Shown here: positions 48,351 to 52,876 of the stretch, piece after piece
How positions within the stretch are numbered: the stretch's first letter is position 1
Layout: each line of letters opens with the position of its first letter
Source of the DNA: an uncultured Candidatus Saccharibacteria bacterium
GTDB taxonomy: Bacteria; Patescibacteriota; Minisyncoccia; UBA6257
DNA length: 64,000 nucleotides
NCBI GenBank assembly: GCA_964479005.1
Contig: CAYZJA010000001.1
Coordinates: forward strand, 192,001-256,000
Direction: 5' to 3'
Position numbers and translations under genes: made by a program
Notes under the pieces: generated by a model
Told to the model about the DNA's origin: nothing
Databases searched by the model: none
Seen by the model: the letters and a program-made list of their open reading frames with translations, nothing else

Positions 48351-48435
48351 ATTCTAATTCTACCCCTTTAACAGGCTCAGGGCAAACAAAAAATCGCCTC
48401 TTTCACCATTTTAAAAGTATTCCAATAAATTTAAA

Positions 48436-48503: not shown

Positions 48504-49109
48504 TTAGGGAAGATAATATGGCATAGAAGCAAAGCCGAAGAAGAAAACAAGACCAATGATAATACATGCTAACACACCTACGCAAACAATAATATCTTCT
48601 TTATTGTCGTAATGAAAGTTTATTTCTCCTAAACCTTCACCCCAGGACCAACCTTCAATCCAGTACCTCCTATTTCCTTCTCTGTATTCATACAAATCAC
48701 TGTAAATAATCACTCCAAGTCCGCTAACAACAGCCGAGTATATTTTACTCAAGGAATAGTATCTATCTGTTTTAAGAAACTTGGATTCCTTTTTTCTAAG
48801 TTCAAAAAACGTATAAATAGTTCCTTCTGGTACCAATTCTAAAAATTGCTCCAAGCTGTCACACAGCACTGCATAATTTCCAAGAATACCAGCTTTTATT
48901 TCTTCTGAAAATTCCCCTTCTACACTATCAAACATATTCTCTATATTCACTTCTACCGCTCCATGAATTTTTTCTGACTTGAACATAATCTCTACATCTT
49001 TACTAAAGTGAATCAGAAAAACCACAGACCAAATTACAAAAATGCCTACTACAACTAAACTAATTATCATCCAGCATTTCAATCCTTTATTCTTCTTTCG
49101 ATTACTCAT
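48504..49109 (-). CDS. hypothetical membrane protein (201 aa; N- and C-terminal TM)
   Basis: ORF; SD AAGGGAGGAAG; preceded by the R1 leader module. Confidence 0.4.
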   Translation of the reverse strand: MSNRKKNKGLKCWMIISLVVVGIFVIWSVVFLIHFSKDVEIMFKSEKIHGAVEVNIENMFDSVEGEFSEEIKAGILGNYAVLCDSLEQFLELVPEGTIYTFFELRKKESKFLKTDRYYSLSKIYSAVVSGLGVIIYSDLYEYREGNRRYWIEGWSWGEGLGEINFHYDNKEDIIVCVGVLACIIIGLVFFFGFASMPYYLP

Positions 49110-49128: not shown

Positions 49129-49340
49129 ATTTTTTTATTTTATATTATTAAACTATTTACTATATAACTAACTACTAATAATTTATAATAATCAGTTATA
49201 TAGTAAATAGTAAAAATATTGTTTTTCAAAGAACTAAAAATATCCTATTACAGGATATCATAAGTATAACATATTTTATATTGTTAGTCAATATATAATT
49301 TAGCTGGGGCTATGGAACGATGTTGGAACTTATTTCATAG
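49129..49340 (-). promoter_or_regulatory. R1 promoter-leader module: GTTCCA direct repeats, TTGACT-17-TATACT, operator palindrome ATATCCTATTACAGGATAT, perfect 18-bp inverted repeat in the leader
   Basis: About 80% identical to R2 (50262-50460); -35 at 49286-91, -10 at 49263-68, palindrome 49240-58, stem arms 49152-69 and 49194-211. Confidence 0.6.
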
Positions 49341-49702: not shown

Positions 49703-49790
49703 TGTTCATATTTTACCAAAAAATCGCCTCTTTGACTATTTTAATTTAGCTACCCCTATGAAACGATATTGGAACCCATTTCATTAAATA

Positions 49791-49837: not shown

Positions 49838-50242
49838 TTATTCCTCTATTACTTTTTTTATCATTTGTGCTTCAATCTCATTAGCTATAGCCGATACTAT
49901 AAGTGCAAACGTGAGCATTCCGTTTGCAATAGTACCAGTAACATCATGAAAGAACAAATAATTTCCCATGGCCACCCAGAAAAGAGCTACTGTAAACATT
50001 TCTTTGATAAAAATACCCCTCCTTATTCCACCCTTTGTGATGCTCCCGTAGATAATCCGAAGCATTGTTTTACTTGGGTTTCCCTTATGAGTAGGTACTT
50101 CTAGAGCTAAAAATATAGCTACTGCAGGACAAAAGAGAATTCCTGGATTGCGTGTTGCCCAAATCAACAATATCAGAAATGAAACTATTGAAAGCACAAC
50201 TCCTATTGCGTGAAGTACAGATATATATACTGGTCTATTCAT
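49838..50242 (-). CDS. hypothetical membrane protein (about 134 aa, 4 TM)
   Basis: The ATG (M4 of the ORF-track protein) sits 8 nt after SD AGGAGG; preceded by the R2 module. Confidence 0.4.
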   Translation of the reverse strand: MNRPVYISVLHAIGVVLSIVSFLILLIWATRNPGILFCPAVAIFLALEVPTHKGNPSKTMLRIIYGSITKGGIRRGIFIKEMFTVALFWVAMGNYLFFHDVTGTIANGMLTFALIVSAIANEIEAQMIKKVIEE

Positions 50243-50261
50243 TTTTTCCACCTCCTTTCAA

Positions 50262-50460
50262 ATTTTAATTAATATTAAACTACCTGTTATATAACTGACC
50301 ACTAATAATGTAATGACCAGTTATATAACAAGTAGTAAGTATATTGTTTTTCAAACAACTAAAAATATCCTATTACAGGATATTATAAATATAACATATT
50401 CTATGTTAGGAGTCAATACATAGCTGGTCCTATGGAACGATGTTGGAACCTATTTGGCTC
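50262..50460 (-). promoter_or_regulatory. R2 promoter-leader module (paralogue of R1): GTTCCA repeats, TTGACT-17-TATATT, the same operator palindrome, 18-bp stem with compensatory changes
   Basis: -35 at 50411-16, -10 at 50388-93, palindrome 50365-83, stem arms 50280-97 and 50318-35. Confidence 0.6.
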
Positions 50461-50543: not shown

Positions 50544-50990
50544 TTATGGAAATATCCAATTGAGCAATTTGGTTTCTATCTTTTCCCGTAGCACAATGTT
50601 TTGAATTTTACCTATCAGCGAATTTTGAGAAAAAATGCATCCGTCAATCCTGGTTGCCTGACAAATAATTGCTCTCATCGGCTGTCTATAAATCTCCTTT
50701 GGATGTAAAAATTGATAATCGGATAATTTTATTATTTCATTTACTTTATCCTCGTAAAGCTTAGTTTTAGATAAGGGAATAGCAAATGCCATACTCTGAG
50801 ACCAAAAAGATTGATCCAGCCAAAGTATAATCGGTCTTGGTTTACCAATAACATTGCTCACTGTGTTATTTTGTCCGCAATAAGGACAAGAATAATTTGT
50901 AATAGAAAAATCCCTGCAACAGCGCGGATTAGAACATTTAATTGTTTCCGGAAATCTAGATATATAAATAATATCCCATTTGTGAAACAT
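50544..50990 (-). CDS. MazF/PemK-like toxin-fold protein with a 4-Cys zinc-ribbon insertion
   Basis: WDIIYISRFPE...[CSNPRCC...CPYC]...GKPRPIILW...AFAIPLSKT follows the MazF/PemK consensus, with a C-x4-CC...C-x2-C insert after strand 1. Confidence 0.5.
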   Translation of the reverse strand: MFHKWDIIYISRFPETIKCSNPRCCRDFSITNYSCPYCGQNNTVSNVIGKPRPIILWLDQSFWSQSMAFAIPLSKTKLYEDKVNEIIKLSDYQFLHPKEIYRQPMRAIICQATRIDGCIFSQNSLIGKIQNIVLREKIETKLLNWIFP

Positions 50991-50993
50991 ATT

Positions 50994-51521
50994 TTAAAAT
51001 GGCAAATCTTCTTTTTCTTCCGGCTCTGATTCCGTTTTTTTTGCAACATCCAAAATATCGTCCCTTTTTGATTCTTGAACAATTGGAAGTTTATAAACTA
51101 TATCAAGCAAATTTTGAAGACTAAGATTACCAAATGAATCAACGACTTCATCAATTATTAATAATTTTTCAGGGCCGAGCGATTTTAATAACTGTTCTTT
51201 TATAGAAACTTCCTTTTTTAAATAATATCTGGTATAGGATTTAGTTTCCTTTCTAGTTAAAGGAAACTTCTTTATTTCAATATACCCAATGTTAGAAAGA
51301 TGATTAGTATAATTGTCTAATTCTACTGTAAACGGGCCGTGTAAATATTTTTTGTATTCCATCACGGTAATTTTTTCTTTTAATCTCCGCATTGCTAAAA
51401 TATCACTCAAAAAAAGTAATTTTTGAAGATGGGTTTTACCGAGAATACCATCTAATCTTGAAATCAAATAAAAAACCACTGCGAGAGTATCTTTATCTAA
51501 CTTAGCTTCGCTTTTGACCAT
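50994..51521 (-). CDS. Panacea-domain (DUF4065, SocA-like) putative antitoxin
   Basis: HLQKLLFLSDILAMRRLKEKITVMEYKKYLHGPFTVEL matches the Panacea core; 4 nt upstream of the MazF-like gene. Confidence 0.55.
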   Translation of the reverse strand: MVKSEAKLDKDTLAVVFYLISRLDGILGKTHLQKLLFLSDILAMRRLKEKITVMEYKKYLHGPFTVELDNYTNHLSNIGYIEIKKFPLTRKETKSYTRYYLKKEVSIKEQLLKSLGPEKLLIIDEVVDSFGNLSLQNLLDIVYKLPIVQESKRDDILDVAKKTESEPEEKEDLPF

Positions 51522-51603
51522 AATATTGAACTTTCTTTATTTTAAGTATAGCCTAAAAAGAAAGTCAAGTAAACAAACCAGTAATAACTTTTCTTTCATA
51601 GAT

Positions 51604-51915
51604 TTATTTATTTTGCTCTTTCTTCGCTGAATTAAAAATATTAGCTTCTATCTTTTTCATTATTCTTCCGCCAATAGATATATAAACGATAAAGGCTAAA
51701 ACAATTGTTGTGATTCCAGCTATCCAAGAAAAAATAAAAAACGTAGTAATAATTAATATAATCCCTAAGATAATAAGGGAATTATTCCAAATCAAAACAT
51801 TTGGTTTTTTAGATAGAATCTTCTTGGACCAAGTATTATTAACAGTAATATAGGCAATAATCAATATTGATCCTAACAATAGTAAATAAAAGATATTTCC
51901 AAAAAATTCAAACAT
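51604..51915 (-). CDS. hypothetical membrane protein (103 aa, 3 TM)
   Basis: ORF only. Confidence 0.35.
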   Translation of the reverse strand: MFEFFGNIFYLLLLGSILIIAYITVNNTWSKKILSKKPNVLIWNNSLIILGIILIITTFFIFSWIAGITTIVLAFIVYISIGGRIMKKIEANIFNSAKKEQNK

Positions 51916-52023
51916 AGATTTATTTTAACTTCTTTCGCCACGCCTAGTACCCATTGTTTATTCTACCAAAAAATCGCCTCTTTGGCGATTTCGATGTATC
52001 TCGGTCCCTCGATAAAAAAACTA

Positions 52024-52082: not shown

Positions 52083-52676
52083 TCATAATAGATAATCTGG
52101 AATAGGATAATCTTTAAATTCATTTAAAAGTAATTTTCCAAAAATCAATCTTGAAAATGCCTCTGCTTCCACTTTTGCTCCAGTTAAGGCATTATGGGGC
52201 CTTGGTTCATCAGGTAATCCTATATAATTTAAAATTTTATCTGAATTTAGATCTGTTTTATTATCTTTTATTGGAGGTTTGAGCCCTCTTTTAAGATAAT
52301 GGGTGTAGCATAAAGAATGTAAATCAATGGTCCTATAACTAAGAGTCCATTCAATTCCATATTTTTGCATAGAAGATTTAAGAAAATCTCTATCAAATGA
52401 TGGATTTTCGCCAGCCATTGTTTTGTCTTTAATATCTTCTGCCCATTTAAGAAAATCCTTTATTATTTCTTCTAAATTTCTTTTATTAGGATCTATAATT
52501 TCTGCGTTCGAAAAACCATTAATTTTTAATGCTTCTTCTGTCACTTCTGCGCCATCCCAAATTTTGCATTCTTGATAAAATTGATTTTCTGGATTAAAAA
52601 AATCTACAGCTCCAATGCTTACGATTGAATTTTTGTAAGGATCCAGTCCAGTTGTTTCAGTATCAACTACTATCAT
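52083..52676 (-). CDS. DnaQ-like DEDDh 3'-5' exonuclease
   Basis: MIVVDTETTGLDP (Exo I), later H-x4-D motif region. Confidence 0.7.
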   Translation of the reverse strand: MIVVDTETTGLDPYKNSIVSIGAVDFFNPENQFYQECKIWDGAEVTEEALKINGFSNAEIIDPNKRNLEEIIKDFLKWAEDIKDKTMAGENPSFDRDFLKSSMQKYGIEWTLSYRTIDLHSLCYTHYLKRGLKPPIKDNKTDLNSDKILNYIGLPDEPRPHNALTGAKVEAEAFSRLIFGKLLLNEFKDYPIPDYLL

Positions 52677-52729
52677 ATGTTTTTATTATTTTTAAAATAT
52701 GATTCAAAATTAACATTTTTTGCTTATTT

Positions 52730-52821
<92 letters not shown>

Positions 52822-52876
52822 ATATTTACCTACCCAAATTTTATAACAAAAACTTGGGTAGATAAATTACTAGTCT

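Follow-up and report, generated by a model that had tools for sequence, protein, structure and literature searches.

A two-gene locus in a Saccharibacteria contig

The window analysed here is a 64,000-nucleotide (nt) stretch of DNA from an uncultured Candidatus Saccharibacteria bacterium (contig CAYZJA010000001.1 of assembly GCA_964479005.1, positions 192,001 to 256,000). The locus of interest within it is a pair of adjacent minus-strand genes: panA, encoding an antitoxin with a Panacea domain, and panT, encoding a toxin with a predicted MazF/PemK fold that carries an inserted four-cysteine (Cys4) ribbon (Table 1). A first-pass annotation of this DNA had placed two open reading frames (ORFs) here, and both were recovered on the minus strand together with every motif it had quoted (HLQKLLFL and GPFTVEL in PanA; WDIIYISRFPE, GKPRPIILW and AFAIPLSKT in the toxin). 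Its statement that the toxin gene starts 4 nt later agrees with the junction, which reads TAA-AAT-ATG, with 3 nt between the genes and the ATG running from the fourth base past the panA stop codon. The G+C content of the window is about 30% and stop codons are frequent, so that ORFs of 148 and 175 residues are already unlikely by chance. Toxin homologues were found at 29-70% identity and antitoxin homologues at 42-69%, and the two ORFs are real genes, far beyond chance.

To describe the arrangement of the pair we compared 13 genomic contexts, namely the window and loci L001, L003, L005, L006, L007 and L013-L019. In the window panA and panT share one reading frame, an arrangement found elsewhere only in L001 (3-nt gap) and L005 (0-nt gap); since it is absent from the remaining ten loci, where gaps of 1, 2, 5, 7 or 14 nt leave the genes out of a shared frame, it is probably coincidental. 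Read-through of the panA stop (50988-50999) would yield a PanA-toxin fusion protein. With 3 nt between them, the two genes probably share a transcript that starts from a promoter immediately ahead of panA. Promoter-like sites across the region number 14, which is not above the 10.8±3.1 found in shuffled controls, and the site listed in Table 1 is a candidate only.

Table 1. Features of the panA-panT locus, its surroundings and homologous loci (window positions unless a locus is named)
Feature	Position	Strand	Remarks
panA, 175-residue antitoxin	50994..51521	-	single Panacea (DUF4065/SocA-like) domain, then a short acidic tail
panT, 148-residue toxin	50544..50990	-	predicted MazF/PemK fold; no family model recognises it
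PanA C-terminal tail, residues 164-175, ESEPEEKEDLPF	50997..51032	-	disordered, acidic, hydrophobic final residue
Cys4 ribbon insertion, toxin residues 18-45 (C19, C24, C35, C38)	50856..50939	-	tip of the β1-β2 hairpin
Arg52 codon	50835..50837	-	predicted general acid/base; Arg25 of B. subtilis MazF, Arg29 of E. coli MazF
Ser74 codon	50769..50771	-	predicted transition-state stabiliser; Thr48 of B. subtilis MazF, Thr52 of E. coli MazF
Candidate operon promoter, TTGACT-18 nt-TAAAAT	51539..51568	-	ends 18 nt upstream of the panA ATG; consensus scan 10/12
tRNA-Ser(GGA)	52732..52821		1.2 kb from the pair
Flanking restriction-modification or toxin-antitoxin regions of homologous pairs	L001 2029-3279; L003 1693-4386; L005 5841-10018 and 1198-1835; L007 5510-6813; L019 1-2912		

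PanA is a standalone Panacea protein

PanA passes the Pfam SocA_Panacea model (PF13274) with 46.7 bits against a gathering score of 25.7 (E 6.9e-12, residues 32-144), in line with the earlier assignment of the upstream protein to Panacea/DUF4065, and PF13274 is also the precomputed annotation of all 18 of its homologues. Weak PADLOC matches were obtained to PDC-M19A and to the C-terminal part of DarG, and DarG is also the best structural match. The AlphaFold2 model, built with the 18 homologues, has a mean predicted local distance difference test score (pLDDT) of 80 and a predicted template modelling score (pTM) of 0.79 and shows one globular domain of approximately residues 5-150. No extra helix-turn-helix, PAD1 or zinc-binding domain was detected in PanA, which is therefore of the 'standalone Panacea' type. 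Its subfamily comprises 19 proteins and is as small as that of the toxin.

In the model, residues 164-175 fall below a pLDDT of 50. The character of this C-terminal tail is retained among orthologues: the net charge of the last 25 residues lies between -3 and -7 in 13 of 13, and in 12 of 13 a bulky hydrophobic residue stands at, or one or two positions before, the C-terminus (ends LPF, LSFE, ISF, LFA, APF, DII, LHL, DIF and DIL; the exception, in L005, is LFND). The orthologue in L016 (1339-1974) was called as a protein of 211 residues, whose N-terminus is longer by some 35 residues of hydrophobic character (MYYAVLALISKMWYNF...); this extension is unique among orthologues and probably reflects a mis-called start codon rather than a genuine segment.

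The toxin has a predicted MazF-type fold with a Cys4 ribbon insertion

Conventional family searches are silent on the toxin. No model in Pfam, NCBIfam or PADLOC matched it, and neither phmmer nor a profile search against the sequences of the PDB returned anything meaningful. Its family amounts to 15 clusters among 5.8 billion proteins, and an exhaustive search with its HMMER profile through 1.84 billion proteins returned 19 representatives, all of the toxin's own family.

Evidence for its fold comes from structure prediction and from profile-profile alignment. The AlphaFold2 model of the toxin (pLDDT 79, pTM 0.72) contains, in its first half, strand β6-18, a small ribbon (β27-29 plus single bridges), strand β47-58, a short helix at 61-65 and strand β68-74, and in its second half strands β84-87, β92-94, β105-108 and β125-129 followed by a helix at 132-146. 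This is the order of elements in MazF (β1-β2-short helix-β3...β7, C-terminal helix), except that β1 and β2 are longer and carry the cysteine cluster as a cap. Among the viral structures of BFVD, Foldseek ranks phage PemK-like or endoribonuclease proteins highest, with E-values that are non-significant. When the full-length toxin profile was aligned by hhalign with an alignment of MazF, Kid and ChpBK, toxin residues 50-145 fell on residues 23-108 of B. subtilis MazF, placing R52 on R25, S74 on T48 and Q111 on Q79. With residues 18-45 excised the alignment is collinear along practically the full length of the two proteins (2-114 of 120 against 3-107 of 116, 103 columns, E 0.008), and it pairs D6 with D7 and P14 with P15 in addition; all of these residue pairings rest on statistically weak alignments (E 0.008-0.12). 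From this collinearity we infer that the toxin is an entire MazF core, some 120 residues long, whose β1-β2 loop has received a single insertion of 28 residues. Judged by its predicted structure, the toxin is a member of the MazF/CcdB structural superfamily that fails the Pfam PemK_toxin sequence test, and fold recognition thus put it where the first-pass annotation had expected it. The 50-residue C-terminal extension also proposed there does not exist: the last 74 residues form an ordinary MazF second half, with the QxxRxD strand and the C-terminal helix.

The insertion between β1 and β2, about 28 residues long, is the Cys4 ribbon that had been read into the strand 1-2 loop. C19, C24, C35 and C38 are invariant in all 25 toxin homologues, down to 29% identity, and C25 is not conserved. 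The cysteines are spaced C19-X(2-4)-C24, X10-12, C35-X2-C38, with a single variant, P0015, that has X1 (C-x-C) in the second pair. Short strands are predicted between the knuckles, and block means of pLDDT are 76-82 over residues 11-40, which hold most of the ribbon, and 65 over residues 41-50. Below threshold, the sequence matches only proteins with a Cys4 ribbon, namely eS27, subunit P of RNA polymerase and anaerobic ribonucleotide reductase in its tail. In sequence and in the model, therefore, the insertion has the two-knuckle, conserved Cys4 pattern of a zinc ribbon, and it presumably binds zinc.

The residues on which catalysis depends in MazF have counterparts in the toxin. In MazF, Arg25 (Arg29 in the E. 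coli enzyme) is the general acid/base (PMC11394972, PMC8887465), and Thr48 (Thr52) stabilises the transition state (PMC11394972). The predicted equivalent of the arginine, R52, is invariant in 25 of 25 toxin sequences, where it lies within a K-x-R-P motif, and K50, P53 and P72 are invariant as well; position 74 is serine in 24 sequences and threonine in one. The conservation of R52 and of Ser/Thr at position 74 argues that the toxin family is an active ribonuclease (RNase).

The pair is conserved as neighbours and inherited as a unit

All 13 contexts have a Panacea gene immediately upstream of the toxin gene, on the same strand and with a spacer of 0-14 nt, while the flanking genes differ and are unrelated between loci; the possibility that the pair might not be conserved as neighbours is thereby refuted. 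The relation holds from the antitoxin side as well: two close PanA homologues that had no prior link to a known toxin contig both proved to have the toxin downstream. Pairwise identities among the PanA proteins correlate with those among the toxins (r 0.73, a value reached by 1 of 5000 Mantel permutations), and the pair has therefore been inherited as a unit. The two proteins are also complementary in charge, the toxins being basic (isoelectric points 8.7-9.7) and the PanA tails acidic.

Only two relatives of the toxin family carry names, Ca. Nealsonbacteria and Ca. Collierbacteria (from a locus scan of GTDB genomes with 15 sequences), for which reason the family looks restricted to the Patescibacteria, or candidate phyla radiation. 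In five of the 13 contexts (L001, L003, L005, L007 and L019) the pair adjoins restriction-modification or other toxin-antitoxin (TA) genes. The restriction-modification types include a methyltransferase-Mrr fusion, an MmeI-like type IIG enzyme and pairs of a methyltransferase with a ResIII/DEAD helicase, and the pair in L005 lies in addition near a PIN/MazE-like pair and a CopG-like gene. Such neighbourhoods in the other loci fit a mobile defence or addiction module.

We also considered a three-gene system that would include an upstream ORF for a 103-residue membrane protein (51604..51915). This ORF is not conserved beside the pair elsewhere, and the module therefore consists of two genes.

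Relation to known toxin-antitoxin systems

By the sequence of its antitoxin, the module is a member of the PanAT class. In their survey of this class, Kurata et al. (2022) found PemK matches among the partners of DUF4065 proteins and PanT clusters that reach EndoA and MazF at about 99.5% HHpred probability, and they validated by experiment two PanA pairs, from Pseudomonas moraviensis and Bifidobacterium ruminantium, with toxins that resemble MazF/PemK/EndoA in HHpred; both toxins are toxic, are neutralised by PanA and inhibit translation (PMC8832971). The present pair resembles these systems (the two validated pairs and PanT clusters T5/T6) in having a Panacea antitoxin without an extra N-terminal domain immediately upstream of the toxin, and in having a toxin that is missed by domain databases and is MazF/PemK/EndoA-like by fold recognition. 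It differs in that its toxin, in the search of 1.84 billion proteins, is not detectably similar in sequence to anything beyond its own 19 representatives. Neither zinc nor a ribbon is mentioned for any PanT in that study or its supplementary files (0 occurrences), and its RefSeq-based dataset has no entries from Parcubacteria or Microgenomates (PMC8832971). A full-text literature search for a zinc ribbon or zinc finger in connection with MazF or PemK likewise found nothing relevant; RAZR, a zinc-finger RNase (PMC13017515), was considered as a relative and rejected, being an unrelated HEPN enzyme.

The zinc-ribbon insertion and the toxin family thus appear to be undescribed, and the architecture of PanA with a MazF-like toxin is already known. 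The first-pass annotation, which had regarded a Panacea-MazF pairing with a metal-binding insert as uncharacterised, was sound in its core structural reading and overstated in its claim of novelty, where only the insert stands as new. Because pairs of PanA with a MazF-like toxin have already been validated experimentally, the advance is a variant and not a new principle.

Compared with the MazF/PemK/Kid family (PF02452, including MazF of B. subtilis and E. coli and MazF-mt3 of M. tuberculosis), the toxin fails the PemK_toxin hidden Markov model, has the 28-residue Cys4 ribbon in place of a flexible β1-β2 loop of about 10 residues, and is paired with a Panacea protein instead of a MazE/PemI antitoxin of the AbrB or ribbon-helix-helix type. 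CcdB, ToxN, CptN and AbiQ all score lower against the toxin than MazF does. The type III toxins among these (ToxN, CptN and AbiQ) are neutralised by a repeated RNA, and a type III-like RNA antitoxin was rejected for this locus: Rfam finds only the tRNA, and no tandem repeats precede the toxin gene. The antitoxin fold is shared with SocA of the Caulobacter SocA-SocB system, after which the Pfam family is named, and with the C-terminal domain of DarG. SocA serves ClpXP as the adaptor for a toxin directed at the replication clamp, and DarG carries a macrodomain enzyme; no MazF-like partner is known from SocA-SocB or DarTG, unlike the pair described here.

MazF enzymes are the best-studied sequence-specific RNA interferases, and their β1-β2 loop is central both to closure over the substrate and to inhibition by the antitoxin. 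A family in which a ribbon takes the place of this loop is in effect a natural experiment on how the loop sets specificity and regulation, and a ribbon toxin could serve as an RNase tool whose cleavage specificity is new. The network of Panacea partners gains a node as well, and it lies in bacteria of the candidate phyla radiation, in which almost no TA system has been examined and which surveys of reference genomes did not reach.

Proposed mechanism and alternative explanations

We interpret panA-panT as a type II TA operon of the PanAT class, in which a MazF-type endoribonuclease with R52 and S74 as its catalytic pair bears a Cys4 ribbon as a lid and is bound by PanA, and we put the probability of this reading at roughly 75%. 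Ordinary MazF has a flexible β1-β2 loop, about 10 residues long, that shuts over its substrate. The present toxin would act as a ribosome-independent endoribonuclease that probably cuts single-stranded RNA by 2'-OH transesterification, with Arg52 serving as general acid/base and Ser74 stabilising the transition state. The 28-residue ribbon, presumably zinc-bound, would replace the mobile β1-β2 gate, most likely as a rigid lid or as a wall of the RNA groove, and would as such contribute both to RNA recognition and to the surface covered by the antitoxin. PanA would bind the toxin directly, its globular Panacea domain holding the toxin and possibly sensing a trigger, and its acidic tail, with the hydrophobic anchor, most likely occupying the basic RNA groove in the manner of the MazE and PemI tails. 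In known systems the β1-β2 loop of MazF shifts its position upon antitoxin binding, and acidic residues of MazE-mt3 form hydrogen bonds to the catalytic Arg and Thr (PMC11394972, PMC8887465). For the tail of PanA as the element that neutralises the toxin, a role assigned by analogy with MazE and PemI, we hold a somewhat less than even expectation, which is kept low because the globular domain of standalone PanAs can itself neutralise the toxin (PMC10440598).

Several observations weigh against this interpretation, beginning with that activity of the globular domain in some PanA systems. The toxin gives no match to PemK_toxin (PF02452) even at E <= 10, in a test in which five genuine MazF, Kid and ChpBK sequences reach 85-131 bits. 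The significance of the full-length alignment with MazF is weak (E 0.12, and 0.025 on a rerun), and the fold assignment depends on a structure predicted from only 15 sequences. The neighbours of the pair in the window are housekeeping genes (an RNase T-like exonuclease, PNPOx, exonuclease III, GroES/EL and a Mur ligase), and the defence-island-like neighbourhood of its relatives is absent from the window.

Given the superfamily to which the fold is assigned, the toxin might instead be a CcdB-like poison of DNA gyrase that traps the GyrA cleavage complex and is sequestered by PanA. GyrA is bound in F-plasmid CcdB by the C-terminal residues Trp99-Gly100-Ile101, and an invariant tryptophan near the C-terminus of the toxin family counts in favour of this reading. 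However, CcdB is without the RNase catalytic pair that is conserved here, and with the higher score of MazF this makes a gyrase poison highly improbable. We consider it nearly as improbable that the genes are not a TA pair at all, in which case the second would be a MazF-fold protein without nuclease activity, a ribbon-bearing nucleic-acid-binding or regulatory partner of a winged-helix-like Panacea protein. Such a protein is at odds with the conservation of the catalytic Arg and Ser/Thr across the 25 sequences, and the tight antitoxin-first layout of two genes, the varied contexts and the acidic tail on the first gene product are hallmarks of type II TA systems.

The alternative with the most in its favour concerns biological role and is compatible with the same biochemistry as the TA operon: the pair might serve mainly in phage defence by abortive infection and not in addiction or stress, with Panacea sensing a phage cue and freeing the RNase to halt translation in infected cells, and with the ribbon belonging to a sensing or docking surface instead of serving RNA recognition. 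Restriction-modification or TA genes stand directly beside the pair in the five contexts described above, PanA resembles DarG of the DarTG defence system, and Ernits et al. (2023) propose Panacea as a sensor and connect TA to defence systems (PMC10440598). Against this, PADLOC has no model for the toxin, tblastn searches of phage and plasmid collections found no homologues, and the pair in the window is surrounded by housekeeping genes; a main role in abortive infection is possible and, in our judgement, unlikely. Similarly tentative is an extension of the TA reading in which the ribbon defines a mechanistically distinct MazF subclass, as a rigid metal-bound lid that either redirects the nuclease to structured RNA (tRNA or rRNA) or forms the surface which Panacea clamps and then releases, for example upon phage infection or a zinc-status or redox trigger. 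If true, Patescibacteria with their small genomes would control a MazF toxin in a new way.

Genomic surroundings of the pair

The window belongs to a metagenome contig of 551,616 bp. The pair had been described as sitting in a tRNA-proximal island. A tRNA-Ser(GGA) gene does lie close by, and a tRNA-associated genomic island was rejected on three grounds. G+C content is flat along the window (0.27-0.34), the 23-nt 3' end of the tRNA occurs only once in the window even when 3 mismatches are allowed, and no integrase is present among the Pfam annotations within 10 kb or among the unannotated neighbours. Sub-threshold Rfam matches over the tRNA gene, at 52735-52781 on the plus strand and 52661-52833 on the minus strand, are to the Plastid-psbl-rps4 3'UTR (43 bits against a gathering score of 68) and the small RNA sX4, and are almost certainly artefacts of the tRNA sequence.

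An intergenic element of about 185 nt is repeated near the pair, with copies at 49150-49335 (copy A) and 50277-50455 (copy B), which are 86% identical over 112 nt, and a partial copy at 49747-49781; their common core is TAGCTnnnnCTATGRAACGATRTTGGAACyyATTT. Copy A lies upstream of an ORF of 201 residues (48504..49109). Copy B lies between the stop codon of the toxin gene and an ORF for a 137-residue membrane protein (49838..50251), and on the minus strand it contains a promoter-like TTGACT-17-TATATT followed by the palindrome ATCCTGTAATAGGAT. No Rfam family matches the element, which is probably a promoter or leader that has been duplicated, although a small RNA or a binding site for a regulator is also possible. 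Near the pair there are three copies of a T-run hairpin, AAAAAATCGCC-TCTTT-GGCGATTT (48379-48421, 49709-49751 and 51959-52001), which follow successive minus-strand genes and read as intrinsic terminators on that strand.

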